DNA of 50,622 bases from an uncultured Candidatus Saccharimonas sp. (GTDB lineage Bacteria > Patescibacteriota > Saccharimonadia > Saccharimonadales > Saccharimonadaceae): the NCBI GenBank assembly GCA_964575635.1, contig CAZNQY010000001.1, positions 1 through 50,622 on the forward strand. The letters are read 5' to 3'. Within the stretch, counting starts at the first letter, position 1. Every line of letters starts with the position of its first letter. The position numbers and the translations under genes are program-made. Of this stretch, positions 31,238 through 48,335 are shown in pieces. Under the pieces are notes generated by a model, which saw only the letters and a program-made list of their open reading frames with translations, was not told where the DNA came from and did no database searches.

Positions 31238-31897
31238 TCACATTTGCCGCGCCAAAGCCGCAACATAGATATGCTTCGCGCCTGACTTCTTTAGAGCCCT
31301 TACAGCGTACTTTATCGTCGCACCAGTCGTAATTACATCATCAATCAACAAATAGGTGATTTCGGGGTCTAGCGCCACCAAACACTTAAATGCCTTCTTT
31401 GCCTGTTTTATTCTCGTTTTTGAATCCGCCTGTCGCTGTTTCGTATCCGTAACACGCACTAATACATGTTTATAATCCAACTTCATCCGCCGCGAAACAT
31501 ATCGCGCAATCAACGCCATATGATCATATCCACGCTCCCTAATATGACTAGATGCTGTCGGAACTGGTATGACAACTGTATTTTTGGGTAAATCCGGAAG
31601 AATTCCAATCAGTAAATCGCCCAAATCCTTATACGCACCGTACGCTCGTTCGAATTTATACAACCCAATAACTCTTTGAATCAAACCTTCTCTTATCCCA
31701 ACAACATAAGCTTTTTCAATACTCCCGACACAATCTTGACATAATGACATAGAATAAGTAGGCCTACGACATTCAATACAAAACAGCTCTCGGTCGCTAA
31801 TGATGTTATATTTACAATTGTCACACAATAAGCACCCGATTTTATCGCATCCGCAACAGTAGTGGGGAGCGACTATCGATATAAGCTTGTCTAGCAT
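31238..31897 (-). CDS. comF: ComF-family protein (N-terminal Cys4 zinc finger plus phosphoribosyltransferase domain)
   Basis: 'CCGCDK...CDNC...CIEC...CQDC' and PRT motif 'LLIDDVITTGAT'. The ATG at 31897 is preferred over the track start at 31969. Confidence 0.8.
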   Translation of the reverse strand: MLDKLISIVAPHYCCGCDKIGCLLCDNCKYNIISDRELFCIECRRPTYSMSLCQDCVGSIEKAYVVGIREGLIQRVIGLYKFERAYGAYKDLGDLLIGILPDLPKNTVVIPVPTASSHIRERGYDHMALIARYVSRRMKLDYKHVLVRVTDTKQRQADSKTRIKQAKKAFKCLVALDPEITYLLIDDVITTGATIKYAVRALKKSGAKHIYVAALARQM

Positions 31898-32003
31898 TGT
31901 ATTTTTTACGTTTAAAACCCTTCTATGGTTGATTATACCGTATATGTTAGTTATAATGTGATAGACCATTTGTCAATAGTGCCTAGAGAAAGTGGAGGAT
32001 ATC

Positions 32004-32474
32004 ATGGCTCGCAAACAGCAAAATGACGATTTTATAATCGAAGACGAATTAACTGCAGCGTTTTTGAACGACGATATGATGGGGATGACAGAAACAACAA
32101 CCATCTCAGCACCAGAAGAACAACCTTGGGACGATTCAGAAGAAGAATTCCCTGGTCAACTAGCTGTTGATGTGTACGAAACAGAAGACCGCCTTGTCAT
32201 CAAAGCTCGCACAGCAGGCGTAAACAAAGAAGAACTAGATGTTAGTATCAGTGACGGCATTCTAACAATCAGCGGTACTCTAAGTAGCGGTGACGAAGCA
32301 GAAGCAACTAACTGGCACATCCAGGAATGTTACTGGGGTGAATTCAGCCGTACATTAGCACTTCCTGTCAGCGTTCGTGAAGATGAAGTAGAAGCAGTTC
32401 TAAAAGACGGCGTTCTAACAATCAGCTTTGCAAAGATCCGCCAAGAAGCAGCAAAAAAGATTCAAGTTCAATAA
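32004..32474 (+). CDS. Hsp20/alpha-crystallin small heat-shock protein
   Basis: 'QLAVDVYETEDRLVIKA...GV..E.LDVSI.DG.LTISG', C-terminal 'DGVLTISF'. GGAGG lies 5 nt before the ATG at 32004. Confidence 0.85.
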   Translation: MARKQQNDDFIIEDELTAAFLNDDMMGMTETTTISAPEEQPWDDSEEEFPGQLAVDVYETEDRLVIKARTAGVNKEELDVSISDGILTISGTLSSGDEAEATNWHIQECYWGEFSRTLALPVSVREDEVEAVLKDGVLTISFAKIRQEAAKKIQVQ

Positions 32475-32563: not shown

Positions 32564-32592
32564 AAAAAATACCCCGCCAAATCAGCGGGGTA
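32564..32592 (-). terminator. Terminator after the last pilin-like gene
   Basis: Stem taccccgc/gcggggta followed by TTTTTT on the minus strand. Confidence 0.65.
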
Positions 32593-32611
32593 TTAATCTA
32601 TAAACGAATGT

Positions 32612-33007
32612 TTATTTAGCTAATGCAGTAACTACGAAGTTAGAGATAGCAAATGCAAGCATAGCTACAACAAGACCGATAACTGCGTAAAGAATAGTAT
32701 TCTTTGCTGCAGTAACAGATGAGCTGTCACCACCAGATAGTGTATAGCGGATACCGCCGTAAACAATCATTACTACGCTAGCAGCACCTAGTACGAACAA
32801 GATAGTGTTAATAACGTTTGTAAACATACCGTTAGCACCGAAAAGCTCTGTTTTCTTACCGTCACCAATACAATCTACTCCTTGTTCCATACCGCCTGTT
32901 CCATCACATGCTGCAAAAGTTGCTGTTGGCATAAAGAATGCGCTGCTTAGAGCCATAACTGGAACTAATAGTAAACCGGTCATTAGCTTTTGAATTGTTT
33001 TTTTCAT
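32612..33007 (-). CDS. VirB2/TrbC-like T4SS pilin paralogue 4
   Basis: Signal peptide, Cys pair, then a two-TM hairpin 'ILFVLGAASVVMIVYGGIRYTLSGGDSS..AAKNTILYAVIGLVVAMLAF'. Confidence 0.7.
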   Translation of the reverse strand: MKKTIQKLMTGLLLVPVMALSSAFFMPTATFAACDGTGGMEQGVDCIGDGKKTELFGANGMFTNVINTILFVLGAASVVMIVYGGIRYTLSGGDSSSVTAAKNTILYAVIGLVVAMLAFAISNFVVTALAK

Positions 33008-33070
33008 TTGATTCCTTTCATTAATACCTTATTTATAACATAAATTACAGTATTTGTTAATATTTTTAAT

Positions 33071-33445
33071 CTATTTGATCACACCAACTACGAAATTCGC
33101 AATTGCGAAAGCCGACATCGCTACAACCATACCGACAACTGAATAAATAATTATATTTTTCGCCTTTGTTATTTTTGAGCTGTCGCCAGCCGATGTAGTA
33201 TAAACCATGCCGCCATAAATCATCATAACAACAGATACGATGCCTAAGACAAACAACAAAGTATTTACAAGGTTTTTAATTATTCCAGACGCATTACTGC
33301 CGTCATCATTACATAACTTATTACTACTGTCAGAAGAACAAGAAGGGAATAGATCAAGGGCGCTAACGTTCGTAGATGGTATTAAAACCAATCCCAATCC
33401 CATAACCAAAGCAATAGAAACGATAATATTTTTAATTTTACTCAT
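33071..33445 (-). CDS. VirB2/TrbC-like T4SS pilin paralogue 3
   Basis: Same architecture: 'LLFVLGIVSVVMMIYGGMVYTTSAGDSSKITKAKNIIIYSVVGMVVAM'. Its start overlaps the upstream stop (TAATG). Confidence 0.7.
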   Translation of the reverse strand: MSKIKNIIVSIALVMGLGLVLIPSTNVSALDLFPSCSSDSSNKLCNDDGSNASGIIKNLVNTLLFVLGIVSVVMMIYGGMVYTTSAGDSSKITKAKNIIIYSVVGMVVAMSAFAIANFVVGVIK

Positions 33446-34113
33446 TAGAATCTCCCTAATACAAAATTTGTTATAACGAACGCCACAGAAACAATAATAA
33501 GGCCAGCGACAGCATATAATATAGCCATCTTTGCTTTTGCAATCTCGCCGACATCACCTCTTGATATAGCATACATAAAGCCTGCTGTAATTATTGCTAT
33601 AACTGCAATGATACCCGCCGCAAAATAAACGAGACTTAGTGTATTCGCCAAAGCAGTATTGGCATCAATATCCGGAATACTTTCATTAACACCCAAACCA
33701 AGCCCATTAATTATTAAACCAACAACAGCGATCGCCATCAATGCAATAACTAACCCAATAACAGCGTTAAGTATAGCGTTTTTGCCCTTTTTCATACCAT
33801 CCGATGATCCACGACTCAATAAATATTGAAAACCACCATAGATAATGTAAAAAGCGGATAAATACGCAACCGCCGTAATTGCGATCTGTAATATATTCAA
33901 CGCAATTCGCCAAACAAAGTTACTCATCGCTTTTCCGTCCGAACTATTCGGAACATCAATCGTACAATCACTATTAGTTACACCATCATACCAAGCAGGG
34001 AAGCCCAAAAAGCCACTATTACAGCTTGCGTAGGTGTCAGTAGGAATAGCAACAGCCATCAAAGATCCGCCTGCAAAGATGGCCAACATTATCGCTTGAA
34101 AATATTTCTTCAT
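33445..34113 (-). CDS. Tandem (fused) double VirB2/TrbC-like pilin, paralogue 2
   Basis: Two consecutive TM-hairpin units: 'YIIYGGFQYLLSRGSSDGMKKGKNAILNAVIGLVIAL' and 'GFMYAISRGDVGEIAKAKMAILYAVAGLIIV'. Confidence 0.7.
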   Translation of the reverse strand: MKKYFQAIMLAIFAGGSLMAVAIPTDTYASCNSGFLGFPAWYDGVTNSDCTIDVPNSSDGKAMSNFVWRIALNILQIAITAVAYLSAFYIIYGGFQYLLSRGSSDGMKKGKNAILNAVIGLVIALMAIAVVGLIINGLGLGVNESIPDIDANTALANTLSLVYFAAGIIAVIAIITAGFMYAISRGDVGEIAKAKMAILYAVAGLIIVSVAFVITNFVLGRF

Positions 34114-34115
34114 TA

Positions 34116-34652
34116 CTAAAACAATCCTCCTGGTATTACATAATTCAAGAATGAATACATAAATGCATACGCAACCAATCCAATGATCACATTCTGTATA
34201 ATTTTGATCGCTTGTTTTGTTTGATCCATTGATCCGCCAGCAGTAGTATACAAAATACTTCCATAAATCACGCCACCAACCGCTAGTAGTCCAATCCCAG
34301 CTGTCATTATATTAATAACCTGAGTTAATAACGACCAAACACAAGAATCTTCTATATCGCCACTACCGTTTGAATCACATTTAATAACAGATGTAACAAT
34401 ACCGTCTACACAGGTTTGGCCATCTTGAAGATTTACGTCGTCGCATGGATCTTTTTCGCTTGATGAAGAGTTTTTGTTTTCATCATTACTACCTGCGTTT
34501 TCTCTATCCACAGTTTCATCAGTTGTTACTGGAGTTGGATCTGCTATTATGACTCTCTTTGAGCTAGTTTCTGCAAAAACTGCTGTAGGCGCACAAAACA
34601 CACCCAAAAGCATGCCCGCTATAATAACCATTGTATTTATTTTATTCTTCAT
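34116..34652 (-). CDS. VirB2/TrbC-like T4SS pilin paralogue 1 with a longer Cys-rich acidic ectodomain
   Basis: The ATG at 34652 (MKNKINTMVIIAGMLL...) gives a signal peptide. C-terminal 'GGVIYGSILYTTAGGSMDQTKQAIKIIQNVIIGLVAYAF'. Confidence 0.65.
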   Translation of the reverse strand: MKNKINTMVIIAGMLLGVFCAPTAVFAETSSKRVIIADPTPVTTDETVDRENAGSNDENKNSSSSEKDPCDDVNLQDGQTCVDGIVTSVIKCDSNGSGDIEDSCVWSLLTQVINIMTAGIGLLAVGGVIYGSILYTTAGGSMDQTKQAIKIIQNVIIGLVAYAFMYSFLNYVIPGGLF

Positions 34653-34796
34653 ATATATCCATAAGATACAATAAAACTGTTGATTTAACAATATATAAAA
34701 CCAAAAAGGTATTGCTTTTTTTCAAAAATAGTGTATTATATAAATAACATAAAAAGACAGACCACGTAACCATATAAGCATACAAGGAAAGTTATA

Positions 34797-35822
34797 ATGT
34801 CAAAACACGACAATCTTGAACAAATTACACTAATTGATAAGAAGAACTCGAAAGAGAAAAAGAATTCAAATAAATTAAATAATGCGGTTATTACTGGTAT
34901 CGTAGCAGTCTCTTTATTTATGACAGGATGCGACAATGGTGAAGCTAGCGCTACTCAACCAGAGATAACACCTCCACCAACCGAATCTTCGGAAATGGTA
35001 AATAATACAAATTCATCCGAAGCAGAACAAGCTGAAGTTAATCCGATCATCATGAAAGAACTTGGCCCAAAAACCGAGATGAATATCACTACCGAATTTT
35101 CAAATGGCGAAACTGTTGATTATTCAAAAGCGCCAGTAAATCTTGTAGAAAGTTATAATTTTGAATATTTAACAGCAGAGCAACAAGCTAAACTCAAAGA
35201 ATACGAAGCAATGGAACTTTCGGAATTCCGCAAACTCTCTAATGAAGAGCAGTCGGTATTCTCGAGCTGGGTACTTAAAAATAACCAACCAAGGTTTGAA
35301 AAAATGTTGTCGGCGTATGGAATTGACAAACAATATTCATATTATGTTAACAAACATAGTGAAATTGTCGAAAACTTTGAATACATTAATATATTTCTAG
35401 CTAGCCTATATATTCAGGACCCTGAAAGTAAAACAGGTAGCTTAAAGTATGATGCCGATACTGCATATAAACTCGAGACAATACATCAAACACCAAGTAT
35501 CGACGAAAATGTTTATAGCACAACTACAAGATATGATGAAAAAATAGATTTTTTCAAGGACTATATTGGTTTAAATATATCTGATTTTGAAACCGAGATA
35601 TTAAAAACTGGTAATATGGAAATAAGAGAACCTGGACATACCTACGCAGGCATAATAGCAAACTTGAAATTTATTGGATCAAAATCTATTACGTTTTCTA
35701 AACCAGATCAACAAGTAATCTTTCAAATAACACCAATTACAGCGATAGACGGTCAAAAAATAGAGCTTACGCAACTTGGATCAATTAATGATATGGAACA
35801 CGCTGCAGAATTTGGAAATTAA
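34797..35822 (+). CDS. Lipoprotein of unknown function, first gene of the plus-strand T4SS side
   Basis: Lipobox-like 'LFMTGC' after a TM segment. Has its own terminator at 35843-35867. Confidence 0.6.
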   Translation: MSKHDNLEQITLIDKKNSKEKKNSNKLNNAVITGIVAVSLFMTGCDNGEASATQPEITPPPTESSEMVNNTNSSEAEQAEVNPIIMKELGPKTEMNITTEFSNGETVDYSKAPVNLVESYNFEYLTAEQQAKLKEYEAMELSEFRKLSNEEQSVFSSWVLKNNQPRFEKMLSAYGIDKQYSYYVNKHSEIVENFEYINIFLASLYIQDPESKTGSLKYDADTAYKLETIHQTPSIDENVYSTTTRYDEKIDFFKDYIGLNISDFETEILKTGNMEIREPGHTYAGIIANLKFIGSKSITFSKPDQQVIFQITPITAIDGQKIELTQLGSINDMEHAAEFGN

Positions 35823-35842
35823 AATAATCTTTTATATAAAAA

Positions 35843-35867
35843 GCACCCTGCAATAAGGGTGTTTTTT
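35843..35867 (+). terminator. Terminator after the lipoprotein gene
   Basis: Stem caccct/agggtg followed by TTTTTT. Confidence 0.6.
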
Positions 35868-35886
35868 ATGTTATATTTATTACATA

Positions 35887-38025
35887 ATGTTTAAGCTATT
35901 TCGTAATAAATATATTACAAACATAATACTGTTTGTTTTTGTCGCAAGTTTTTTTTGTTCTTTATTTGTCGTAAAAACCGCCAATGCATGCTCTTACAGT
36001 CAAAAAGACAATACGTACATTAGTTGTACGGACGCAGAAAAAAAAGAATATGAAGCAAAAGGGGAAGTAGCGGCAGCGCAGCAAACATTAGACCAAGCAA
36101 ACCCACCCGAAAAAAGTGACTGTATGCCAAAGGGAATTGGTTGGATATTGTGCCCTGTAATGAATTTTACTGCTGAAATCGTTGACGGAGCATATAGTGC
36201 TATTAGTAGGATGCTAACCACTCCAGCGCTTGGAACAAATACTGACTCATCTAATGGTATGTATACTACCTGGTCGGTTATGCGAACGCTTGCTAATATT
36301 ATTTTTGTTATTGCGTTTATAATTATAATTTTTTCTCAAATCACAAGTGTAGGTATTAATAATTACGGGATCAAAAAATTACTACCCAAATTAATAATAG
36401 CCGCAATTCTAGTAAATATATCTTATTTTATTTGTGCTATTGCCGTAGACATATCTAATATTTTAGGTATTGGGTTTAAGGGAATTTTTGATAGCGTGTT
36501 AGATAAAGTAAACAGCGGTAAGATGATGAGTACAGAAGATATAACATCTCTAATTCTTGCAAATAACACCGAGAAAATGGCCATATTAACTGGCGTCACA
36601 GCCGGAGTTGCTTTATCAGGAACAGAGTTTCTTGCCGCCCTTTCATTATTAGTTCCTGGATTAATTGCAGCTTTTCTTGCAATAGCAACAGTATTTATTG
36701 TATTGACATTGCGACAGGCATTGATTGTATTGTTGGTAGTGGTTTCGCCGATCGCTTTTGTATTATACTTATTACCAAACACTGAAAACTGGTTCAAAAA
36801 ATGGCGAGACATGTTTACGACAATGTTAATGATGTTTCCGATTATTGCTGGTATATTTGGAGCTTCACAACTTGCGGCATATACGATTGTAAATAGTAGT
36901 AACTATTTCATGGTTCAATTAATGGGCGTATTGATTCAATTTATTCCTCTTGCGATTACACCATTAGTAATGAAATCCGCAGGTGGAGTGTTGAATAAGG
37001 TTGGTGGATTTGTTAATAATCCAAACCGTGGACCTTTCGACAGAATGAAAAAGAGTGCAAAAAGCTACTATGATCGCGCTGATCTACGTTCAAATAACCG
37101 CGCTATGAATTTAGGAGAAAAACCAAATGCTGGACAGCTATTACGATATGGCATGAGACGAGGGTTATTAAAAAGAGATGCATATAATAATGTGGTCGAT
37201 GAAAATTTAAAGAAAGAATACGGCCGATCAGCAACAGATTTTGTTACTGATTCTATAGAAAAAAATAAACAACGCACAAGCCAACAATTAATGTCTTATG
37301 TCACGGGCAATAAAATAGGTATTCGTGACGAAATGACAAAAGGGGCAGGTGCTGGGGCTGGAGATAGGGCATATGCATCAGCTCTCGGTACACAAGGCAA
37401 GATATGGGATGACAACGTAAAAACAGCTGGTGCAATGTTTTCAAGAGAAGGTTATAGCGGCCAAGAATTACATGCAATTGCTACTGGCGGCACCCTTAGA
37501 GAAAATAAAGAAGCGAGCGGAGAACAAGTTGAAGCATCAGTCGCCGATGGAGTCCAGTCTAATTATTATCCAAATATTCACGGTATGCTTGATTACGCTA
37601 CAAAAATACAGGATCCAGAAAAGCGCGCATCATACCAAAAAACTCTTATATCTAAGCTTGCCACAAGCCCAAATAAGCCAAAATATCTATCGGGCCAAGA
37701 TATTGACGAGCTAAAGCAAGGCACATTCAAAAATACTATCGATGACATGATAGTTAATACAATTGGAAAAAATAAATTATCTCAAGAATCATTTAAATCG
37801 ATGAGCCCTGAAGAAATGGCTCAATTCACCAATGTGTTGACAGAAAATAAAGATGGAAAACTTAATGTATTAAATAAGCAATTAAATGACTTCCAAAGTA
37901 CAATCATTGCAGCTATAAATAACCCTAGGTTGAATTTTAGTCCTGCTGAAATAGAAGCTATGAATAAAATGGCAAACGCCGCAAGGTTACAAGGATCCGC
38001 TCATAGTAGTGGACAATTCGAATAA
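35887..38025 (+). CDS. VirB6/TrbL-like polytopic T4SS membrane protein with a long hydrophilic C-terminal domain
   Basis: 712 aa: N-terminal TM, Cys-containing loop, at least 6 TM segments between aa ~130 and 380, then a ~330-aa soluble tail. Confidence 0.65.
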   Translation: MFKLFRNKYITNIILFVFVASFFCSLFVVKTANACSYSQKDNTYISCTDAEKKEYEAKGEVAAAQQTLDQANPPEKSDCMPKGIGWILCPVMNFTAEIVDGAYSAISRMLTTPALGTNTDSSNGMYTTWSVMRTLANIIFVIAFIIIIFSQITSVGINNYGIKKLLPKLIIAAILVNISYFICAIAVDISNILGIGFKGIFDSVLDKVNSGKMMSTEDITSLILANNTEKMAILTGVTAGVALSGTEFLAALSLLVPGLIAAFLAIATVFIVLTLRQALIVLLVVVSPIAFVLYLLPNTENWFKKWRDMFTTMLMMFPIIAGIFGASQLAAYTIVNSSNYFMVQLMGVLIQFIPLAITPLVMKSAGGVLNKVGGFVNNPNRGPFDRMKKSAKSYYDRADLRSNNRAMNLGEKPNAGQLLRYGMRRGLLKRDAYNNVVDENLKKEYGRSATDFVTDSIEKNKQRTSQQLMSYVTGNKIGIRDEMTKGAGAGAGDRAYASALGTQGKIWDDNVKTAGAMFSREGYSGQELHAIATGGTLRENKEASGEQVEASVADGVQSNYYPNIHGMLDYATKIQDPEKRASYQKTLISKLATSPNKPKYLSGQDIDELKQGTFKNTIDDMIVNTIGKNKLSQESFKSMSPEEMAQFTNVLTENKDGKLNVLNKQLNDFQSTIIAAINNPRLNFSPAEIEAMNKMANAARLQGSAHSSGQFE

Positions 38026-38094
38026 AAAGATGCAAGTAATCAATATTGCTCATAAAAAACAGGCATTTAACAACATTTTGCTATAATATAACCA

Positions 38095-39000
38095 ATGGCA
38101 GTTTATAAAGTACCTCAGGATGTGGAAGCTGACGATAAGTTGATCGGTCCGTTTAACTTTCGCCAATTTATATATCTGTTAATAGTCTCGGCATCATTTG
38201 GAATAGCGTGGTTATTCTTTAATATATTGCCCATTATGGCAGTAATTCCTTTGCCTGTGATTTTGTTTTTTGGGGCGCTTGCGTTGCCGCTTCGTAAAGA
38301 CCAGCCAATGGAAATTTATATGGCAGCCTTAGTATCATTTTATTTGAAACCAAGGCGTCGTATCTGGGAACCAGACGGACTAGATAATTTGATCGAAATC
38401 ATCGCCCCAAAAATTGTCGAAGTTCAACGAACAAAGAATTTATCAGTCAATGAAGCTGAGCGCAGACTTAGTTACTTGGCAGAGATTGTCGATAGCCGTG
38501 GTTGGGCAGTACGAAGCCCAGGTGGCGTTCAATTACCGAATAGTGCAATGAACAGCGATGTTTATTTTGAAGCTCAACAAGTCGATGACGTACTTGATAA
38601 TGACAGTGCTATGGTACGTCAAATATCAAACAAATTAGCCGAAAGTGATAATAAACGTCACCAAGACGCAATAAATATAATGCAAAACAAAGCGCCTGCC
38701 GCGCCGATACCAATTCCAATTCCTATACCAAAACCACTTTCTGCCGAAGAACGAATCAAACTTGAGTATAATCCTTATCCAAGTGAAATCCATCAAACGG
38801 TTGTTCAGCCTTTATTTAACAATCAAGCGCCAGTCGAACAGATAAAACCTGAACCAAACACTAGTAAAGACACTGTTTCTGCTGATATAATGAATCTTGC
38901 AAATAATACTAGCTTGTCAATTGAAACAATCGCACACGAAGCAGAGCGTATCAAGAAAAGGCAAGAAGCTAGCGAAGAAGTGGTGATTTCTTTGCGCTAA
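38095..39000 (+). CDS. PrgI-family (VirB3-like) T4SS membrane protein with a Pro-rich linker
   Basis: Opening 'YKVPQDVEADDKLIGPFNFRQFIYL' followed by a TM pair; 'PIPIPIPIPKP' linker. Confidence 0.7.
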   Translation: MAVYKVPQDVEADDKLIGPFNFRQFIYLLIVSASFGIAWLFFNILPIMAVIPLPVILFFGALALPLRKDQPMEIYMAALVSFYLKPRRRIWEPDGLDNLIEIIAPKIVEVQRTKNLSVNEAERRLSYLAEIVDSRGWAVRSPGGVQLPNSAMNSDVYFEAQQVDDVLDNDSAMVRQISNKLAESDNKRHQDAINIMQNKAPAAPIPIPIPIPKPLSAEERIKLEYNPYPSEIHQTVVQPLFNNQAPVEQIKPEPNTSKDTVSADIMNLANNTSLSIETIAHEAERIKKRQEASEEVVISLR

Positions 39001-39041
39001 AATGAATAATAAAAGAGGACGAGAGTGGGGAATAGGCAATT

Positions 39042-39848
39042 ATGCCACCAATTAATCAAATTCAAAATCCAGGTCAACCAGTTCCAGCGCCAAATGGAGC
39101 TCCCTTAGCGCAGTCTCAAAAACCACGTAATCCAAACTCGACACAGAACACGTTATTATTATCAGAACTTCGTGACAATATGGTTATTATGGCTGACGGA
39201 TCATTTAGAGCCGTTGTTGCCTGTAAATCAATCAACTTTGATTTGATGAGTAGCCGTGAACGTGAAGGTGTTGAATATAGTTATCAAAACTTCTTGAATG
39301 CATTAAACCATCCAGTTCAAATTTTGATCAGGTCACAACGAATTGATATTGGCCCATATATTGATAAACTTGTTCAAATCCGTCGCAATCAAGACAATAT
39401 GTTATTAAACGTATTAATGGATGATTATATTAACTTTATCGATATTCTATCTCAAGAAGCAAACATTATGGACAAATCATTCTTTATTGTTGTACCTTAT
39501 TATCCGCAGGGAGATTTGAATAATCTTATTGAACAAGGAAAAGGTTTCTTTGGAAAGATCGTTTCAAAACCAAAAAACGCCGTGACAAAAATTGATTCAT
39601 TTACTTACGAAAAAGCCAAAACTGAAGTTAAAAACAGAGTTGATGGTGTTATTGCTGGACTATTTCAAATGGGAATTCAAAGTATTCAATTAAATACAAA
39701 AGAGTTGGGCGAGTTATATTATAACTTTTATAATCCAGACACCGCAGTTCGTGAACCATTAGGTAATTTCGAAGACGTTACTTCGATTTATGTTAAAAAA
39801 GGTACAAACAACCAACAACCCCCAGCTATGAATGGAGGAATAAAATAA
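39042..39848 (+). CDS. T4SS-associated protein, translationally coupled to VirB4; resembles the non-ATPase N-terminal region of monoderm VirB4 proteins
   Basis: 'MADGSFRAVVACKSINFDLMSSREREGVEYSYQNFLNALNHPVQILIRSQRID'. No Walker motifs. TAATG overlap with the next gene. Confidence 0.5.
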   Translation: MPPINQIQNPGQPVPAPNGAPLAQSQKPRNPNSTQNTLLLSELRDNMVIMADGSFRAVVACKSINFDLMSSREREGVEYSYQNFLNALNHPVQILIRSQRIDIGPYIDKLVQIRRNQDNMLLNVLMDDYINFIDILSQEANIMDKSFFIVVPYYPQGDLNNLIEQGKGFFGKIVSKPKNAVTKIDSFTYEKAKTEVKNRVDGVIAGLFQMGIQSIQLNTKELGELYYNFYNPDTAVREPLGNFEDVTSIYVKKGTNNQQPPAMNGGIK

Positions 39849-41692
39849 TGGCACGAAAAAATCGCAGCGCAGTTGATATTGCCGCCGAACAACGAGCAAG
39901 AGAACAAGCCGAAGTTGAACAAGTATTTTTGAAGGGTGTTACGACATTACGCGATCTAATCGCGCCAAGTAGCCTTGAAATTCACTCATCTTACTTCCGA
40001 TTAGGTACAAAATACGGCCGAACAATGTATATTTATGGCTATCCACGTCAAATTTACACTGGTTGGTTAAGTTCACTAATTAATATTGACGAAGTTTTAG
40101 ACGTCAGTATGTTTATTTATCCAGTCGAAAGCCAAGTTGTGTTAAATAATTTGCGCAAGAAAGTTTCACAGCTCGAGGCTACTGCATCACTAACCAGTGA
40201 ACGCGGAAAAGTACGTGATCCAGGTATCGAAGCGGCTATTAACGACGCAGAGGAACTTCGTGACCAATTACAAGTTGGCGCCGAACGGTTCTTCCGCTAT
40301 GGACTTTATGTGACTTTATATGCCGACAGTTTAGATGAACTTGGTTACATTCAACACAAAATCGAAACATTATTTGGCCAACAAATGGTCTTTAGTAAAG
40401 TAGCCAGCAGTCAACAAGAACAAGGTTTGAATAGTACAATCCCTCAAATGAGCGATCAATTGCAAATTCGCCGCAATATGAACACAGGAGCAATTAGTAC
40501 CAGCTTCCCATTCACGAGTGCCGACCTGACTCAAGAAAACGGCGTTTTGTATGGTATTAATATGCACAATAACGGATTGGTTATTTTTGACCGCTTTAGC
40601 CTTGAAAACGCTAACATGGTTGTCTTTGCCAAATCTGGTGCAGGTAAGTCATTTACCGTAAAACTTGAAGCATTACGCAGTATGATGATGGGTAGTGAAG
40701 TGTTAATCATTGACCCAGAAAATGAATATCAGAAATTATCTGATGCTGTAGGCGGTGCTTATATTCGTCTCAGTTTAAGTTCGACAACTCGCATTAATCC
40801 TTTTGATCTACCCCGAGTTATTGACACTGATGACGCCGATAATGCACTTCGTGCAAATCTAATCACTCTTCACGGATTATTGAAACTAATGTTAGGCGGA
40901 ACAACTATTAGTAATGGTGTGCCGCTTGCAGCACTTAGCCCAATCGAAGAAGCTGACCTGGATCAAGCCTTGATTGATACATATGCACGTGTTGGTATTA
41001 CTAGTGATCCATTAACACACAATTCAACTCCGCCAACTATTTCTGACCTTTACGACACGCTACTACACATGGGAAATAGCGGTCCACAACTTGCCCAGCG
41101 CTTGCGTAAATATACCTCAGGAACTTTTGCTGGTATTTTCAGTCAACAATCTAATATTGATATCAATAACCCAATGGTTGTATTTAATATCCGTGACCTC
41201 GAAGACGAACTTCGTCCAGTTGCGATGTATATTATCCTTAGTCACATCTGGAATGTGATTCGTAGCGAAAAGAAAAAGCGCATGCTAATTGTTGACGAAG
41301 CTTGGCAATTAATGAAGTACGACGATTCGGCTAACTTCTTGTTTAGTCTTGCAAAACGTGCCCGCAAATATTACCTTGGACTTACCACAATCACTCAGGA
41401 CGTCGAAGACTTTATGGGTAGTAAAATGGGTCGTGCAATTGTTGCCAATAGTTCTATGCAAATTTTATTAAAACAATCTTCAAGTGCTGTCGATGTATTA
41501 TCAGACGTATTTAAATTAACCGAAGAAGAAAAAAAGCGTCTTTCAAACTTCCCAGTAGGGCAGGGCTTGTTCTTTGCTGGTCAAAGCCACGTTCATATTC
41601 AAATTGAAGCCAGCCCAACTGAAAAACAATTCATCTCTACAAATCCACGACAAACTCAAAACGATAATTCATATGGAAATAATCAAGTTTAG
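39848..41692 (+). CDS. virB4: VirB4-family T4SS ATPase
   Basis: Walker A 'AKSGAGKSF', Walker B 'MLIVDEAWQL', N-terminal 'YGRTMYIYGYPRQIYTGWL' typical of VirB4/TcpF/PrgJ. Confidence 0.88.
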   Translation: MARKNRSAVDIAAEQRAREQAEVEQVFLKGVTTLRDLIAPSSLEIHSSYFRLGTKYGRTMYIYGYPRQIYTGWLSSLINIDEVLDVSMFIYPVESQVVLNNLRKKVSQLEATASLTSERGKVRDPGIEAAINDAEELRDQLQVGAERFFRYGLYVTLYADSLDELGYIQHKIETLFGQQMVFSKVASSQQEQGLNSTIPQMSDQLQIRRNMNTGAISTSFPFTSADLTQENGVLYGINMHNNGLVIFDRFSLENANMVVFAKSGAGKSFTVKLEALRSMMMGSEVLIIDPENEYQKLSDAVGGAYIRLSLSSTTRINPFDLPRVIDTDDADNALRANLITLHGLLKLMLGGTTISNGVPLAALSPIEEADLDQALIDTYARVGITSDPLTHNSTPPTISDLYDTLLHMGNSGPQLAQRLRKYTSGTFAGIFSQQSNIDINNPMVVFNIRDLEDELRPVAMYIILSHIWNVIRSEKKKRMLIVDEAWQLMKYDDSANFLFSLAKRARKYYLGLTTITQDVEDFMGSKMGRAIVANSSMQILLKQSSSAVDVLSDVFKLTEEEKKRLSNFPVGQGLFFAGQSHVHIQIEASPTEKQFISTNPRQTQNDNSYGNNQV

Positions 41693-41702
41693 GTAATTAA
41701 TT

Positions 41703-44099
41703 ATGAATAGTGACGACCATCTAAATCCCGGACAAAGACATATCGATGACACGACGGATTTTTTGAAGCGCGCTGAAAACAACAAAAACAAAGGACAATC
41801 AGATCAATTAGACAATTCAAGTGATTTAAAAAACGCCGAAGAAAATTCAAATTCGAGTTGGAAAAATAACGTTTCTTCAAAAAACATAGCAACTAACATA
41901 GGTGGTGGTGTATTTAAATCATTTATAAAAAAACGCGGCCCTGCAGCTACAATTATGCTTACTTTGTTGTTTGGCGGTATGGGCATTAGTACGTTATTGT
42001 CACCATCATTACTTTTAATGCAAATGCGTGAAGTTTTTACTGATAAATTCAATAATCAACTGACAAGTTTAGAAAAACGCAAAGTATCTTTCTATACAAA
42101 TAAAACCACTAGTGGTAGCTGTTCTGGTATTAAAATTGCCTGTAAATTTTCAACCTTTTCAGAAAAGCAAATCGAAAACTTTAAAAAAGCAGGCATCGAT
42201 ATTGAAGTAGACGCAGATGCGTCAAAAACAATGACTGGCCGTTCAAGAGCAACTAGCTTTAGTTTTGAAGGAAATAAAATATCAGCATCAGAATTTAACA
42301 GTAAATTAAAAAATGATGTAAAATTCCGATCCGCCGTAAAAGTTGCCTATAATCCAAAATTATCTTCTTTTTCTGACACCGTTTACAACAAAATCGCCAG
42401 ACTTTTCAAAGTATCAAAAACCACCAAGACAATAACTGGCGATACTGATGAAGCAAGACTTAAAAGCCTACAAGAAGATATGAATTCAAAAAACAACAAC
42501 ATCAAAAGAGTTGGTGTTGGCGATATTGATGAAAATGGAAATGTATTAACAGACTCCGAAGAGGATCTCAAAAAAATAGACGAAATGAATAGTAAGATTG
42601 ACGACCTCGTTAAAGAAGCTGACAGTTTAGCTGACAGTGGAGATAAACTTGCATCCGAAATACTTGATGGGATTGATGGTGGGGGCGACCTAAATATTAC
42701 AAAAGGTGTGGCGCTCGGGGCATTAGATGGTGTCGCAACATCTTTAAAGGTTACGGATACTCCCGATATGGCATGTTCAATCAAACAAAGCTTCGCAGCA
42801 CTCACTTTTGCTGCTAAAACCGTTCGTTCTGCTCAATTAGCAAGATTTGCAATGTTCTTTTTAACATCAGCAGATCAAATAAAGGCAGGTAAAGCTGATC
42901 CAAACACTATATCTTTCCTTGGTAAAATATTAACTTCAACCAAAAACGGTAAATCAGCTACAGATTCATTTGGTTTTAAATACGCAGCCTACGGTGATAC
43001 TGGAAAATTACCGTCCTCAGCATCTCAATATATGACTGGTGGTGGTTTAACTGGAGTATTATCAAAAATTAATTCAATCGCAGATGACGTTATAAATTCT
43101 TTTGGTGGAAATAAAGTCTGTAAATTCTTAGGCAATCCTTTCGTAAGTGCAGCCTCATTAATCGTTGGTGTTGGCTTATTTCTCGTACCCGGTATAAACG
43201 TAGTCTGGACAGCAAAAGAAATTGCTGAAGCTGGTAAAACTGCTGTATTTACATTAGCCATGATAGCACTACCATCTATGTTAAAAGATATAGTAGCTGG
43301 AAATTTAATTGATAGTTCAACAATTGGCGAATCTGCTGGAAATGCGATTACATCAGGCGCATCATCTATGATGGGATCGGTAGCTCATGCTGGTGGTAAT
43401 GCACCACTAACACCATCTCAGGCTGTCGCATATAACAACGCAACAAAAGATGTTATTGCGCAATACGCCGAAGAAGATAGATTAGCTTATGGTCAATTTG
43501 ATATTACAAATAGTAATACATTCCTTGGTAAATTAGCCTTGAATTTAACTCCGTTTATTAGTAATTTATCATCGTTATCTGGAGTATTTAATTCAATAAC
43601 TTCGATGCCAATAAAATCATTTGCTTCAATTACAGCTCCTATATCTTATGCAACCAGTACTGACGAATATACAATGTGTGAAGATCCAGAGTATAGAAGT
43701 TTAGGTGTTGCGACTGATCCATTTTGTAACGTTTATTATGGTATTCCAGTCGAAGATCTAGATATATCTCCAATAGATGTTGTAGAAAAACTATATGATT
43801 TACACAGAATAGAATCTATTAAAGGAGTAGACCGAGAGGATTTTCCACAGATTTCTGAAGAAGGTAGTCCAATAGATAAATACCAAAGTTTTGTAAACAA
43901 ATGTATTAATAACACAGAACCATTAACTGATAGCGAATGTATGTACGGTACATCGATATTAATTGCAAAAAGCTACCAAGTAATCGATGAAGTAACTAAA
44001 GAAGTGTTAGAATCATGGCCGGAAGTAAGCATTAGTAATAAGTATTTCTATATTAGCTCAATGGATCAACGAATAGAAAATATGATGGATAATATTTAA
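41703..44099 (+). CDS. Large (798 aa) membrane protein of unknown function within the T4SS operon
   Basis: TM near aa 85-110 and a TM pair near aa 480-540; no family recognised. Confidence 0.6.
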   Translation: MNSDDHLNPGQRHIDDTTDFLKRAENNKNKGQSDQLDNSSDLKNAEENSNSSWKNNVSSKNIATNIGGGVFKSFIKKRGPAATIMLTLLFGGMGISTLLSPSLLLMQMREVFTDKFNNQLTSLEKRKVSFYTNKTTSGSCSGIKIACKFSTFSEKQIENFKKAGIDIEVDADASKTMTGRSRATSFSFEGNKISASEFNSKLKNDVKFRSAVKVAYNPKLSSFSDTVYNKIARLFKVSKTTKTITGDTDEARLKSLQEDMNSKNNNIKRVGVGDIDENGNVLTDSEEDLKKIDEMNSKIDDLVKEADSLADSGDKLASEILDGIDGGGDLNITKGVALGALDGVATSLKVTDTPDMACSIKQSFAALTFAAKTVRSAQLARFAMFFLTSADQIKAGKADPNTISFLGKILTSTKNGKSATDSFGFKYAAYGDTGKLPSSASQYMTGGGLTGVLSKINSIADDVINSFGGNKVCKFLGNPFVSAASLIVGVGLFLVPGINVVWTAKEIAEAGKTAVFTLAMIALPSMLKDIVAGNLIDSSTIGESAGNAITSGASSMMGSVAHAGGNAPLTPSQAVAYNNATKDVIAQYAEEDRLAYGQFDITNSNTFLGKLALNLTPFISNLSSLSGVFNSITSMPIKSFASITAPISYATSTDEYTMCEDPEYRSLGVATDPFCNVYYGIPVEDLDISPIDVVEKLYDLHRIESIKGVDREDFPQISEEGSPIDKYQSFVNKCINNTEPLTDSECMYGTSILIAKSYQVIDEVTKEVLESWPEVSISNKYFYISSMDQRIENMMDNI

Positions 44100-44100
44100 T

Positions 44101-45309
44101 ATGAAAAAGATTATTATATTTGCAATTACATTAATAATTACTTTAAATCCAGTAAAAGTATTTGCTTTTGATAATAATTATTTTTATAACGTAAATGATA
44201 TTATATTTTTTGATGAAAACAGTAGTTGTGATTATGTAACCAGTTCATTTGGGTCAGCTAGTCAGACTCCAACACTTACAGATTTCGTAGATAGATACGG
44301 CGAAGGTGCTTATAATGTCGGTAAAAAATATGGAATTCCATACGAAGCAATTTTGGCGCAAGGAATTTTGGAATCTGGTTACGGGCAATCATCGCTTGCT
44401 TATCAATACTTTAATTTCTTTGGTATGAAAGCTGGTAGTAGTTGGACTGGCGGAACAGTTGTTATGAGTACAAGCGAAGAGTATACACCAGGCGTAAATA
44501 CTCAAATTGAAGCTGCTTTTAGAACATATCCAACCGTTGAAGCTGGATGGGAAGGTTATGCCTTATTTATCACAAACAATGGCAATCCAGCCAGATATAA
44601 AGATGCTTTAAATTATTACAATGATTACGCTGGTTATATTAAAGCCGTAAAAGATGCTGGGTATGCCACCGACAGTACTTATACTGAAAAAGTTACTAAT
44701 CTTGCAAATGGTATAGCCGATTATATTAAAGAAAATAATAAATGGCCACCTTCATCACAATCCGAAAAACCATCCATTGATTATGGACAAATAGCTTCGG
44801 AATCAACTTCATCAATAGATTCTTGTAGTAACGGAATAGTTGCTGGTGATATCGTTCAAACAGCCTTAAGTTTTGCAAAAAGTGAGCCTGTTGAAAACGG
44901 CGTAAATCAAATTAGTGACGCAATACCTGAATATGTAAGTGCAATAAATCAATACAATCCAGGAGCAAGCGTTGCGGATTGCGGAATGTTTGTAGGTACT
45001 GTAATGATCGCAAGTGGTGTTGACTCGAATTATCCAAAAAGTGGCACAAGTATTCAATTAGATTACGTAAAAAGTAATCCAGATAAATATCTGGTAATAG
45101 ATAATCCCCAAAGAAATAACCTTGAAGCAGGTGATATATTAATCGTAAATAATGGCGAAGATCACCACACAATGATATACACAGGCAACAGTCCTTATCC
45201 AGCCGTAGATGCATCCCAGGATGAGCGAGTACCAAGTGTTCGAACCGAAGCAAGCCTGGCTTCAATATTAAGTAAATCTGGCGTTGTTATCGCAAGGGTT
45301 ATTAAATAA
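44101..45309 (+). CDS. Secreted bifunctional peptidoglycan hydrolase (GH73 glucosaminidase plus NlpC/P60- or CHAP-like Cys peptidase), a VirB1/PrgK/TcpG analogue
   Basis: 'YGIPYEAILAQGILESGYGQS...FNFFGMKA' (glucosaminidase). C-terminal 'ADCGMFVGTVM' and 'HHTMIYTG' (Cys/His). Signal peptide present. Confidence 0.8.
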   Translation: MKKIIIFAITLIITLNPVKVFAFDNNYFYNVNDIIFFDENSSCDYVTSSFGSASQTPTLTDFVDRYGEGAYNVGKKYGIPYEAILAQGILESGYGQSSLAYQYFNFFGMKAGSSWTGGTVVMSTSEEYTPGVNTQIEAAFRTYPTVEAGWEGYALFITNNGNPARYKDALNYYNDYAGYIKAVKDAGYATDSTYTEKVTNLANGIADYIKENNKWPPSSQSEKPSIDYGQIASESTSSIDSCSNGIVAGDIVQTALSFAKSEPVENGVNQISDAIPEYVSAINQYNPGASVADCGMFVGTVMIASGVDSNYPKSGTSIQLDYVKSNPDKYLVIDNPQRNNLEAGDILIVNNGEDHHTMIYTGNSPYPAVDASQDERVPSVRTEASLASILSKSGVVIARVIK

Positions 45310-45908
45310 TGAATAAAAAAATAATATCATTATTGATATTTATCGTAATTTTTATATCAATCGTTTTTGCAGTGTATTATTACATCACGCCTAAATCATA
45401 TTTAAAAATCGAAGTAGCACCCGAACAGGTTTCTTTAAAAATCGATAACGAAAATAGTATAAATATTACAAACGGTAATAAAATTACAATCAAACCTGGT
45501 GATCATAAATTAGTTTTTTCAAGAGATGAATTCGATTCATATACTATTAATATATCCATCAAAAAAGACGAATCCAAATCTGTTATCGCTGTATTAAAAG
45601 CTTTAACCGAGAACGCAAAAAAACTACTCAATAATAGTAAATCAAATAAAGTTATCGAGAAATTTACAGGTTTAAAACTAAATATTCAAGATAATAAATT
45701 ATTATCAGATTTTCCAATTTTAAAAATATTGCCAATAAATAATCCTTATTACAGAGTTATGGCTTGTAATTCAAAACAATTTCCAAACGACTCCGAAAAG
45801 ATCGCTATTTGTGTAATTATGGATGATTTAGGTTATAAAAATGATCTAAAAAACGAAATTATTAATCGCGGATATAATCTGGATAGTTACGAAGTTATTT
45901 GGAACTAG
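45309..45908 (+). CDS. Membrane-anchored protein with a PEGA-like beta-sandwich domain, last gene of the T4SS operon
   Basis: N-terminal TM; 'LKIEVAPEQVSLKIDN...ITIKPGDHKLVFSRDEFDSYTINISIKKDESKSV'. TAATG overlap with the hydrolase gene. Confidence 0.55.
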   Translation: MNKKIISLLIFIVIFISIVFAVYYYITPKSYLKIEVAPEQVSLKIDNENSINITNGNKITIKPGDHKLVFSRDEFDSYTINISIKKDESKSVIAVLKALTENAKKLLNNSKSNKVIEKFTGLKLNIQDNKLLSDFPILKILPINNPYYRVMACNSKQFPNDSEKIAICVIMDDLGYKNDLKNEIINRGYNLDSYEVIWN

Positions 45909-46947
45909 ATAAATTAATATTTTTAATATCCGTATCAATATTATCTGGTAATTTAGTCGAAGTAATAATAACTTGTTTATCGCTCAAAAATAATCTTTTT
46001 TGACGTTCGTCATCAAGTTCGCCAAATACATCATCTAATAATATAATTGGTTTTTCACCAACTATATTTTCTATGATATTTATTTCTAAAAATTTCAATG
46101 CCAAAATTATACTACGGACTTCACCACGCGATGCTATATCAAGAGCAGGGGAATTATTAAAATTAAATATCACATCATGTCGATGTAATCCAGTACTGGT
46201 ATATCCAAGCGCAATATCTTTTTCGGTGTGATAATAAAGATCGTTTAATATTTTTTGTTTAATATCGCCTATATAAGTATTTGAATAGTGTATTGAAACA
46301 ATATCATTATTATTAGCAATAATTTTATAGGCGTCATTTAAATTACTATTAATTTGTTCAATAAAAGCAATTCGCTTCTCGATAATATATGATCCATATT
46401 CACTTAATGTCATATCCCAAACAAATAACTCATCTCGCTTCATATAAGGCTGTTTCAGGAGATTATTCCGTTGTTTTAGGGCTCTATCATATTTATGTAG
46501 ATATGACGAATATAAAGGGTCTAATTGACTGACAAATCGGTCAATAAATTGTCGGCGGCGATTTGGTGATCCATGAAGTAATCGTAAATCATCAGGCTCG
46601 AATAAAACAACCGGAGATTTATATTTCGGCGTCATTCGATACATTTCTTTATTATCGATAGTAATTTTTTTGCGCTTGGCTTGAATTTCGGAATTAAAAG
46701 ATATTATTCTTTTATCACTGTTATTTAATTCTAGATTAATAGACCACCAAAGTTTATCTTTTTTTAAAATATCCGCATCGGTTCCCTTGAAAGAAGATCC
46801 CTGTAATGATAAATAAATAGCCTCTAATATTGAAGTCTTACCAGACCCATTAATACCTGTAATTACAGTAGTATTAGGTGAAATAATCGCATTAAATTCA
46901 TTATGTGATCGAAAGTTTTTGAGTGATATTTTTTTAATCACTGGCAT
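45895..46947 (-). CDS. recF: DNA replication and repair protein RecF
   Basis: 'FRSH...GINGSGKTSILEAI', C-terminal 'LLDDVFGELD'. Synteny dnaA-dnaN-recF. Confidence 0.93.
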   Translation of the reverse strand: MPVIKKISLKNFRSHNEFNAIISPNTTVITGINGSGKTSILEAIYLSLQGSSFKGTDADILKKDKLWWSINLELNNSDKRIISFNSEIQAKRKKITIDNKEMYRMTPKYKSPVVLFEPDDLRLLHGSPNRRRQFIDRFVSQLDPLYSSYLHKYDRALKQRNNLLKQPYMKRDELFVWDMTLSEYGSYIIEKRIAFIEQINSNLNDAYKIIANNNDIVSIHYSNTYIGDIKQKILNDLYYHTEKDIALGYTSTGLHRHDVIFNFNNSPALDIASRGEVRSIILALKFLEINIIENIVGEKPIILLDDVFGELDDERQKRLFLSDKQVIITSTKLPDNIDTDIKNINLSSSK

Positions 46948-46953
46948 TTATAA

Positions 46954-48054
46954 TTAACTCTTTAAAGGCATTATTATATGGAAATAATCTGTATCTTTTT
47001 TAGTTGATTTAATAATACATGGTGATAATTTACCACTAAAACTAAAGATTATTTCATCGCCGTCAACAACCGAAAGAGCTTCTTTTAAATATCTAGAATT
47101 TAAAGTAATTTGGCCATCTTCACTTACAGTTGCTTTTGCTTCTGATGTATTTTCACCAAGTTGTGATGCAATAGAGTGAATAGAAAGATTATTTTTTTCT
47201 TTATTAGCCGTTAATATTACACTGCCACCAGATTCGCGGGCAAATAATCCAGCAATTTTTGTTATACCAACAAAGTCGCTTTTATTTAATACAACTTCAG
47301 TTTCAGATTGTTTTGGAATTAATTGTCTGTAATCTGGGAATTTACCGTCAATTAAACGACTAATAATTTCTGTGTCATTAATTCTAAAACGCACTTGAGT
47401 TTCGTCGAATAAAATATTTATTTCTTCACTATCTTCGGTAATATTACGCATTACTTCTTGTAAAGTTTGAGTTGGAATAATTGCTGACACATCACTTTTA
47501 GTATCAACTAATTTACGTTCTGATAATCTATAACCATCTGTTGCAGCTAAATATAATTTACCATCAAGAGAGTGCCAATAAACACCAGTTAATACTGGGC
47601 GAGTAGTATCACTACTGGTTGTAATAATTGTTTGAGAAACAGATTGTTTAAAATCTTCGATCTTTATACTATATTGAATTGATGAAGATTCATTAATAGT
47701 TGGCAGTTCTGGAAATTCATCAGCAATAAAACCATTAATAATGGAATTATAACTGCCACATTTAATATGTAAATTATTATTAACAACTTTTAATTCAACT
47801 GAATCTTTTGGTAGGTTAGAAACAAACTCTGCCATTAGTTTTGCTGGAATTGTAATTGAACCAGGTTTAATGATTTTTACATTTATATATTGAGTAACTG
47901 CAATCTCTAGATTAGTAGCTGCTATTAATAAACGATTATTATCAGTACGAAGAAGTATGTTTCCAAGTATTGGTAATTGTGTCTTTGTACTTGCTACTCT
48001 ACTTACTGCGTTAATAGCTTTGGCTAGTTTTTCTTGTGTAACAATGAGTTCCAT
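46954..48054 (-). CDS. dnaN: DNA polymerase III beta sliding clamp
   Basis: 366 aa, 'LPILGNILL', 'ATDGYRL', C-terminal 'IIMPLKS'. Confidence 0.95.
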   Translation of the reverse strand: MELIVTQEKLAKAINAVSRVASTKTQLPILGNILLRTDNNRLLIAATNLEIAVTQYINVKIIKPGSITIPAKLMAEFVSNLPKDSVELKVVNNNLHIKCGSYNSIINGFIADEFPELPTINESSSIQYSIKIEDFKQSVSQTIITTSSDTTRPVLTGVYWHSLDGKLYLAATDGYRLSERKLVDTKSDVSAIIPTQTLQEVMRNITEDSEEINILFDETQVRFRINDTEIISRLIDGKFPDYRQLIPKQSETEVVLNKSDFVGITKIAGLFARESGGSVILTANKEKNNLSIHSIASQLGENTSEAKATVSEDGQITLNSRYLKEALSVVDGDEIIFSFSGKLSPCIIKSTKKDTDYFHIIMPLKS

Positions 48055-48107
48055 TATTATGTATTACCTTTCTTTAAATTCTTTTTAGGGGTTCTAATAA
48101 TAGGTAC

Positions 48108-48319: not shown

Positions 48320-48335
48320 GGTATTTTGTATAGTT

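Follow-up and report, generated by a model that had tools for sequence, protein, structure and literature searches.

An origin-proximal gene cluster of an uncultured Saccharibacterium probably encodes the vertically inherited type IV secretion system of its lineage

The DNA analysed here, referred to as the window, is a whole contig of 50.6 kb (50,622 nt) from an environmental, uncultured Saccharibacterium (TM7; class Saccharimonadia, Patescibacteria); within this genome the analysis is confined to that contig. At positions 32612–45908 the window carries a cluster of genes for a type IV secretion system (T4SS), in which all thirteen open reading frames (ORFs) were found where the initial annotation had placed them. 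We assign a probability of roughly 85% to the reading that the cluster is a vertically inherited, origin-proximal T4SS of Saccharibacteria and, by gene order and annotation, the counterpart of SEML1_0005–0019 in Southlakia epibionticum ML1. The cluster derives from monoderm conjugation machinery (MPF-FATA, with a CD1110-type VirB4). The finding itself is already known, the cluster being a further orthologue of a published system (PMC10633639; PMC12102498).

The minus strand of the cluster holds four VirB2-type pilin genes. The plus strand holds, in order, the genes for a lipoprotein, a TrbL_3/VirB6-like protein, a PrgI/VirB3 protein, a TrsD/TraC-like protein, the ATPase VirB4, a 798-aa membrane protein, a GH73 wall hydrolase and a weakly PEGA-like protein. 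The pilin operon and the plus-strand set diverge from an AT-rich intergenic region of 105 bp (34692–34796), delimited from the sequence and the gap between genes, which presumably carries promoters for both sets; a consensus scan listed no promoter-like site inside it. Of the many TAATG overlaps reported in the initial annotation, three are true 1-nt overlaps: between the 222-aa and 124-aa pilin genes, where the start of the latter overlaps the stop of the former, between the TrsD-like gene and virB4, and between the GH73 and PEGA-like genes. The remaining gaps range from 1 to 105 nt.

We compared the cluster with a set of related loci: in the GTDB genome set VirB4 has at least 589 relatives at species level, and the best 80 of them supplied these loci. 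The VirB4 proteins of these best 80 are 82–91% identical to that of the window, and nearly all of the source genomes are titled Candidatus Saccharibacteria or Saccharimonadales. The conserved order in the related loci is comF, hsp20, pilins, VirB6-like, PrgI, TrsD-like, VirB4, 798-aa protein, recF, dnaN, dnaA and rnpA. Wherever at least 9.9 kb of downstream sequence is available, dnaN/dnaA follow VirB4 at a distance of 5.4–9.2 kb (52/52 loci), and of the 52 loci that extend at least 9 kb upstream, 40 have pilin matches. The order of the TrsD-like and PrgI genes directly upstream of virB4 is kept in 73–79 of the 80 loci, and strand calls agree in 489 of 489 cases across the set. The complete 780-kb genome of TM7i has an equal layout, with the block from valS to dnaA syntenic with the window, back to valS-rlmH-HIT. 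Patchy, strain-specific presence, which the initial annotation had associated with an ordinary conjugative module, was not found among these relatives.

Both flanks of the cluster are conserved, and the genes originally named there (hsp20 and comF on one side, recF-dnaN-dnaA on the other) were confirmed. On the left (31238–32474), profile matches identify a gene for a comF-like phosphoribosyltransferase (31238–31969, minus strand) and hsp20 (31992–32474, plus strand); these neighbours recur in 21–23 related loci, in TM7i and in S. epibionticum. On the right (45895–49895, minus strand), profile matches and ORF calls give recF, dnaN and dnaA, the last at 48336–49724 (minus strand), 6.6 kb from the end of virB4. 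A box scan of this flank yielded six DnaA-box-like 9-mers, concentrated in the two intergenic regions flanking dnaA (48161–48308 and 49781–49895), and these clusters probably mark oriC. The term origin-proximal is reasonable for the cluster because the 9-mers gather beside dnaA. If oriC does lie beside dnaA, the 11-kb plus-strand T4SS operon (34797–45908) runs head-on to replication and the pilin operon is co-directional with it. These orientations are kept in all related loci.

No coupling protein (VirD4/TcpA-type type IV coupling protein, T4CP) or relaxase occurs among the ORFs of the contig, and no integrase lies in or adjoining the cluster, in agreement with what had been proposed from the sequence. 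All ORFs of at least 500 aa on the contig are identified: they encode HsdM, GroEL, a serine recombinase, valyl-tRNA synthetase, a GDSL-family surface protein and the T4SS proteins. No direct repeats (att) bound the cluster; the search returned only short AT-rich chance pairs and, outside the cluster, repeats made of tRNA-Ser 3' ends and terminators. The statement that att repeats and a recombinase are missing thus holds at the cluster, but a serine recombinase does exist elsewhere in the window (12547–14205).

Composition gives a similar picture. The mean GC content of the T4SS genes is 0.361 versus 0.381 for the remaining genes, a difference that is not significant, and third-position GC content (GC3) declines gradually toward dnaN. 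From 44 kb onward (44000–50622) GC drops from about 0.38 to about 0.30, with GC3 down to 0.12 in dnaN. A chimeric contig or an island was considered as the source of this drop and rejected, since in 49 of 50 relatives the GC content of dnaN/dnaA is likewise below that of virB4. The fall after 44 kb therefore characterises the origin region throughout the lineage and does not come from a chimeric assembly, and the absence of an obvious compositional break, as first described, is upheld. Together, the linkage, repeat, distribution and composition tests support the claim of the initial annotation that this is a domesticated chromosomal T4SS and not an integrative and conjugative element (ICE).

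The closest described system is that of S. epibionticum ML1, in which Wang et al. 2023, Cell (PMC10633639) reported an 'apparent T4SS (SEML1_0006-0019)' that resembles Gram-positive conjugative systems, has an unusual series of pilins and lacks coupling and relaxase proteins. In their transposon sequencing (Tn-seq) data, SEML1_0005–0011 and 0013–0019 are essential, the NTF2-like SEML1_0012 being the exception; S. epibionticum is the one species in which such a requirement for epibiotic growth is known. Like the window, the SEML1_0005–0019 locus runs from dnaA-dnaN-recF through genes for a PEGA-like protein, a GH73/lysozyme plus cysteine proteinase, a large membrane protein, VirB4, a TrsD-like protein, PrgI, a VirB6-like protein, a small NTF2-like protein and a pilin array to Hsp20, ComF and tRNA-Ser, and like the cluster of the window it is without coupling protein and relaxase. 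The two loci differ in detail: (i) the window has one VirB6-like gene, whereas ML1 has two (0011 and 0013); (ii) the window has four pilin genes with five pilin domains, compared with six genes in ML1; (iii) the large membrane protein of the window, at 798 aa, is without the C-terminal DD-peptidase domain of SEML1_0007 (1114 aa); (iv) the hydrolase has 402 aa in the window and 644 aa in ML1; and (v) SEML1_0004 has no counterpart in the window.

In a survey of the phylum, Quinonero-Coronel et al. 2025, Microb Genom (PMC12102498) found the VirB4 clade of Patescibacteria to be monophyletic and sister to MPF-FATA. TrsD, PrgI/VirB3 and VirB6 are linked to virB4 in these genomes, VirB2 genes form arrays of 2–11, and the loci are close to dnaA/dnaN; relaxases occur in only 103 Patescibacteria genomes and rarely near virB4, and T4CP homologues far from virB4 are common. 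Judged by the identity and titles of its best-matching relatives, the VirB4 of the window probably belongs to this clade, and nothing essential distinguishes the cluster from the systems surveyed; tandem-fused pilins and the 798-aa scaffold family go unmentioned there. With the conjugative MPF-FATA systems of Firmicutes (pCF10 PrgH/I/J/K/L; the CD1110 type of Tn916/CTn2; TrsD of pGO1) the window shares a CD1110-family VirB4, PrgI, a TrsD-like protein and a channel of VirB6-like type, and its wall hydrolase, like theirs, pairs a muramidase with a probable cysteine peptidase. Unlike those systems, the cluster has no T4CP, relaxase, oriT or integrase on the contig and is chromosomal, core and vertically inherited, and it includes VirB2-type pilins, which the Gram-positive systems are without.

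Operation without a VirD4-type coupling protein has precedents in the Helicobacter ComB system (DNA uptake) and in Bordetella Ptl and Brucella VirB (protein export), which share VirB2, VirB3, VirB4 and VirB6 homologues with the cluster. These three are diderm machines with a VirB7/9/10 outer-membrane core, whereas the cluster is without that core: Pfam and NCBIfam scans returned no VirB7-, VirB9- or VirB10-like match in it, and monoderm T4SSs are without these components. ComB function also depends on downstream ComEC; the essentiality of the Saccharibacterial T4SS does not.

The 614-aa VirB4 ATPase (39848–41692, plus strand) passes the cut-off of the NCBIfam family conju_CD1110 (377.5 bits against 325) and has matches in 80/80 loci, at 82–91% identity. 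Its Pfam matches are P-loop_TraG, AAA_10 and DUF87, its C-terminal domain matches PDB entry 4ag5 (E 2e-52), and the Walker A (GAGKS, residues 264–268) and Walker B (IVDEAW, 481–486) motifs that had been read from the sequence are present. The protein aligns to positions 174–734 of the conju_CD1110 profile and is without the usual N-terminal stretch of about 170 residues. Just upstream, the 268-aa TrsD/TraC-like protein (39042–39848, plus strand) is identified by NCBIfam and by precomputed PF26593 (TraC-like) and has matches in 79/80 loci at 56–82% identity; against NCBIfam it matches positions 99–247 of the VirB4_plasma profile (E 3.9e-7) as well as TrsD (E 7e-5), both below cut-off. Because the 268-aa and 614-aa proteins cover consecutive parts of the full-length VirB4 profile, VirB4 appears in effect to be split across two ORFs, the smaller of which would be its detached N-terminal domain, and the 1-nt overlap of this ORF onto virB4 suggests translational coupling. 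We also considered the 268-aa ORF as a duplicate of the VirB4 N-terminal region and rejected this, as BLASTP shows no similarity between the two proteins, which are not paralogues, and the NCBIfam coordinates are consecutive.

The channel component is predicted to be an extended VirB6/TrbL-like polytopic membrane protein of 712 aa (35887–38025, plus strand), with a signal or transmembrane (TM) segment, a Cys-rich loop, about six further TM segments (about seven in total) and a hydrophilic C-terminal domain of 330 aa. It has a precomputed Pfam assignment to PF19590 (TrbL_3), as do most of its more than 2000 homologues, and 20 of 50 homologues give weak matches to TrbL (PF04610). Its identity as VirB6/TrbL, proposed at the outset, is nonetheless only moderately supported because hmmscan of the protein alone against Pfam gave no match. 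The 301-aa PrgI/VirB3-like protein (38095–39000, plus strand) is above the Pfam PrgI cut-off (E 2.1e-10), as expected from its first description, and has matches in 73/80 loci; at its C-terminus it continues into a long extension with a (PI)n stretch. Sequence searches of the PDB with the 268-aa protein, the VirB6-like protein and the VirB6 family profile returned chance-level matches only, and literature look-ups of PF19590 and PF26593 found nothing.

The pilin array comprises four genes and five pilin domains, with cores 26–56% identical to that of the 131-aa pilin, and topology prediction gives all four proteins a signal peptide, a Cys pair and a two-helix hairpin. All four genes lie on the minus strand. 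The 131-aa pilin (32612–33007) matches Pfam T4SS_pilin (PF18895) above cut-off (E 1.5e-10) and has matches in 36/80 related loci, and the 124-aa pilin (33071–33445) is likewise above the gathering cut-off (E 6.7e-11). The third gene (33445–34113) encodes a tandem double pilin of 222 aa in which two VirB2-like hairpin domains occupy one ORF: T4SS_pilin matches two stretches (E 1.3e-12), there is an additional weak TrbC match, four TM-like segments follow the signal peptide, and each half can be aligned with the other pilins. Among 39 related loci, 9 have this fusion too; it is a small addition to what is known, fused VirB2 pilins being unmentioned in the published surveys consulted. The fourth, divergent pilin (34116–34691, 191 aa as listed) has matches in 40/80 loci; translation probably begins at Met14 (nt 34652), a start that yields a normal signal peptide. 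The description of four VirB2/TrbC-like pilins thus stands for three by the T4SS_pilin cut-off, while the fourth falls just short of it (E 9e-5; 22.9 versus 26.6 bits). An intrinsic-terminator-like hairpin (32568–32594, minus strand; 12-bp stem with 6 GC pairs, followed by a T-run) closes the pilin operon.

The 798-aa protein (41703–44099, plus strand) appears to be a T4SS membrane scaffold specific to Saccharibacteria. Pfam and NCBIfam scans of it gave no match, in line with its first description as an orphan membrane protein, but it is no orphan in the sense of having no relatives, for it has 103 homologues and matches in 65/80 loci. The predicted topology consists of a cytoplasmic N-terminal tail, a TM segment near residue 90, Cys-bonded extracytoplasmic domains and a pair of TM segments near 480–530. 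About 28 of the 103 homologues carry a C-terminal hydrolase domain (VanY in 19, M23 in 8, Amidase_3 in 1 and GH73 in 1, two proteins having two), and one family member (P0100, 1234 aa, in the family P0002–P0104) adds an endonuclease/exonuclease/phosphatase domain. The protein is 33% identical over its full length to an M23-fused protein of 935 aa in TM7i; in the window, the hydrolase is instead a separate gene, one nucleotide downstream of the 798-aa gene. We infer that the 798-aa protein, as a scaffold in the membrane, holds wall-cutting enzymes in place at the machine. Its AlphaFold2 model is confident (pLDDT 76, pTM 0.76). A PDB fold search with the model returned nothing (best E 1.0), and a sequence search of the PDB with the family profile gave chance-level matches only. 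On this result the protein is not identifiable with PrgK, TraG, VirB8 or any solved T4SS part.

The adjoining gene encodes a secreted wall hydrolase of 402 aa (44101–45309, plus strand), annotated as bifunctional, with matches in 14/80 loci. The GH73 part of the original GH73 plus cysteine peptidase assignment is firm (Pfam Glucosaminidase, E 1e-30, with a FlgJ-type muramidase domain in NCBIfam), but the match to NlpC/P60 is weak (E 0.009, below cut-off); the C-terminal part is probably a cysteine peptidase, judging from the sequence, and the enzyme would then have a VirB1/CwlT-like role. The last gene of the operon encodes a single-pass exported protein of 199 aa (45309–45908, plus strand; matches in 9/80 loci), whose 3' end overlaps recF convergently by 14 nt. 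The proposed PEGA-like anchor is recognisable here only as a weak resemblance (Pfam PEGA, E 0.05, below cut-off); SEML1_0005, which occupies the same position, was annotated as PEGA from its predicted structure.

The first plus-strand gene encodes a fast-evolving protein of 341 aa (34797–35822), which has the expected lipobox of a lipoprotein (LFMTGC, ending at Cys45) and occupies the position of SEML1_0012. A tblastn search found no match to it in the 80 related loci; a word-index search found one homologue and exhaustive phmmer 54 distant ones, and relatives map to the equal slot, between pilins and VirB6, in four related loci. In TM7i this slot is also filled by a protein of about 340 aa (8702–9736 of its locus, L082), which has no detectable similarity to the 341-aa lipoprotein (BLASTP E 0.07). 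The gene thus appears to mark a slot of fixed position whose content is subject to very rapid divergence or replacement. The AlphaFold2 model (pLDDT 79, pTM 0.74) consists of helices followed by four long antiparallel strands. The best PDB matches in a fold search belong to the NTF2 superfamily and are non-significant (E 0.03–0.4, the best 0.033; TM-score 0.3–0.4), and VirB8 is not among the top 50. The model leans toward an NTF2-like C-terminal domain, the fold assigned to the same-position protein SEML1_0012 in S. epibionticum. The lipoprotein may thus be a VirB8/PrgL-like component, a type that combines an NTF2-like alpha+beta cone fold with a membrane anchor at the N-terminus. The lipoprotein gene is probably monocistronic because a terminator-like hairpin (35834–35871, plus strand; 16-pair stem plus T-run) follows it.

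From these parts a working mechanism can be proposed. The pilins would be exported by Sec and seated in the membrane, while VirB4 would be docked to the TrbL_3/VirB6 channel through PrgI/VirB3 and the detached TrsD-like N-terminal domain. VirB4 would then extract pilins from the membrane and polymerise them into a tube. The GH73/cysteine-peptidase enzyme and the 798-aa scaffold would open the wall locally, and the wall opened may also be that of the host; the lipoprotein and the PEGA-like protein would act as wall-spanning accessories. The resulting conduit would touch the host bacterium and move macromolecules other than conjugative DNA. As to cargo, we favour the view that the conduit exports proteins that condition the host, which on our analysis ranks ahead of import, an adhesive pilus and an ICE.

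Several points weigh against this account. (i) A 2024 PNAS perspective calls the role of the T4SS 'completely unknown', naming effector delivery or nucleotide acquisition as ideas. (ii) The VirB6, PEGA, cysteine peptidase and fourth-pilin assignments rest on sub-threshold or precomputed matches. (iii) Synteny and annotation are the basis on which the S. epibionticum genes are taken as orthologues. (iv) A T4CP homologue could be encoded elsewhere in the genome, outside the 50.6-kb contig.

Import is the alternative that survives best, although we consider it unlikely. The machine would run inward as a feeding tube, taking up host nucleic acids or other macromolecules for an organism unable to make nucleotides, loosely like ComB or the archaeal Ced system. 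Such a conduit would fit the absence of T4CP and relaxase from the contig and the conserved neighbour comF, and it accords with the naming of the T4SS as a candidate nucleotide-acquisition route in the PNAS perspective. In a 2026 preprint, a related parasite is reported to feed on host RNA, and tubular structures that may be T4SS pili were seen where parasite and host meet. VirB4 gives weak matches to the DNA-import ATPases CedB and CedD, but these are generic P-loop matches far below cut-off, and although one orthologue of the 798-aa scaffold carries the endonuclease/exonuclease/phosphatase domain described above, the cluster has no conserved component that would bind import substrates or act as a nuclease. 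Competence, moreover, is not the reason for the essentiality of the T4SS, because deletion of comEC removes competence but not viability, and the essentiality of the T4SS is independent of ComEC (2025 review); comF of S. epibionticum (SEML1_0021) is also non-essential by Tn-seq (PMC10633639). Of the functions offered in the initial annotation (host-cell interaction, effector delivery or DNA uptake), DNA uptake for transformation is disfavoured by this published genetics, whereas the core reading of a machine that is not an ICE is supported.

A more specific and somewhat more doubtful proposal is a host-piercing feeding conduit, in which the interchangeable hydrolase modules of the scaffold family would be matched to the chemistry of the host wall and breach the envelope, and the VirB2-type tube would import RNA or nucleotides. 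If it were true, nutrition would be a function new to T4SSs.

The cluster could also encode an organelle for adhesion only, in which the VirB4/VirB6/VirB3 core builds an anchoring VirB2-type pilus through which nothing passes. The pilin array is large, divergent and, in S. epibionticum, essential, no substrate receptor (T4CP) is present, and divergence among pilin paralogues in other T4SSs is linked to variation of the host surface (PMC12102498). We nevertheless regard this as improbable: adhesion and motility in Saccharibacteria are already served by two type IV pili, and conserved wall hydrolases together with an extended VirB6 point to a channel, although sequence data alone do not separate this possibility from the others.

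An ordinary ICE or conjugative module, with T4CP, relaxase and integrase off the contig or in the recombinase segment at 12.5–16.2 kb, would suit a VirB4 family typed on conjugative transposons (CD1110), a large serine recombinase beside a tRNA-Ser gene in the window and evidence that covers one contig, but it is very improbable given that the core genes tsaD, femAB, valS, rlmH, that of a HIT protein and pgsA separate the recombinase from the cluster, that the valS-dnaA block is syntenic with TM7i, that all related loci with sufficient flanking sequence keep the cluster between hsp20 and recF-dnaN-dnaA, that neither att repeats nor an island-type compositional break occur, and that relaxases are so rare in Patescibacteria, above all near virB4 (PMC12102498).

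Export of host-conditioning proteins by a vertically inherited T4SS is the function that we favour. According to the 2025 review, the Saccharibacterial T4SS is the first T4SS that is essential for its bearer; it is also a rare monoderm T4SS with VirB2-type pilins and a leading candidate for how ultrasmall Patescibacteria exploit bacterial hosts. The copy in the window adds an environmental orthologue and several details, namely the fused double pilin, a hydrolase-carrying scaffold family without known fold and the fast-evolving lipoprotein slot. It opens no new question, and cargo and direction are no more testable here than in cultured strains.

Other features of the contig lie to the left of the cluster. 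The 552-aa large serine recombinase (12547–14205, minus strand) overlaps the 3' end of a tRNA-Ser(gct) gene (12512–12604). Beyond it are small unassigned ORFs and then four iteron-like direct repeats of 20 nt, GAGCGATATCTCCCCTATTT, at 15929, 16041, 16105 and 16179. The segment from 12512 to 16250 probably represents a small integrated element with no relation to the T4SS. The recombinase was also tried as the boundary of an ICE and rejected, lying 18 kb off with the core genes named above in between.

Nearer to the cluster, a 57-nt unit made of a terminator-like hairpin and a tRNA-Ser 3' end occurs three times (26002–26058, 26199–26255 and 30234–30290). Two of the copies belong to called tRNA-Ser genes (26235–26322 and 30270–30359), and the copy at 26002–26058 may be a tRNA remnant. 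Between the copies are genes for a 199-aa membrane protein and an 870-aa GDSL-family surface protein, which have 0 and 1 matches, respectively, in the 80 related loci. At the left end of the contig lies the gene for the type I restriction-modification methylase HsdM (483–1994, minus strand; Pfam N6_Mtase, E 1.6e-112).

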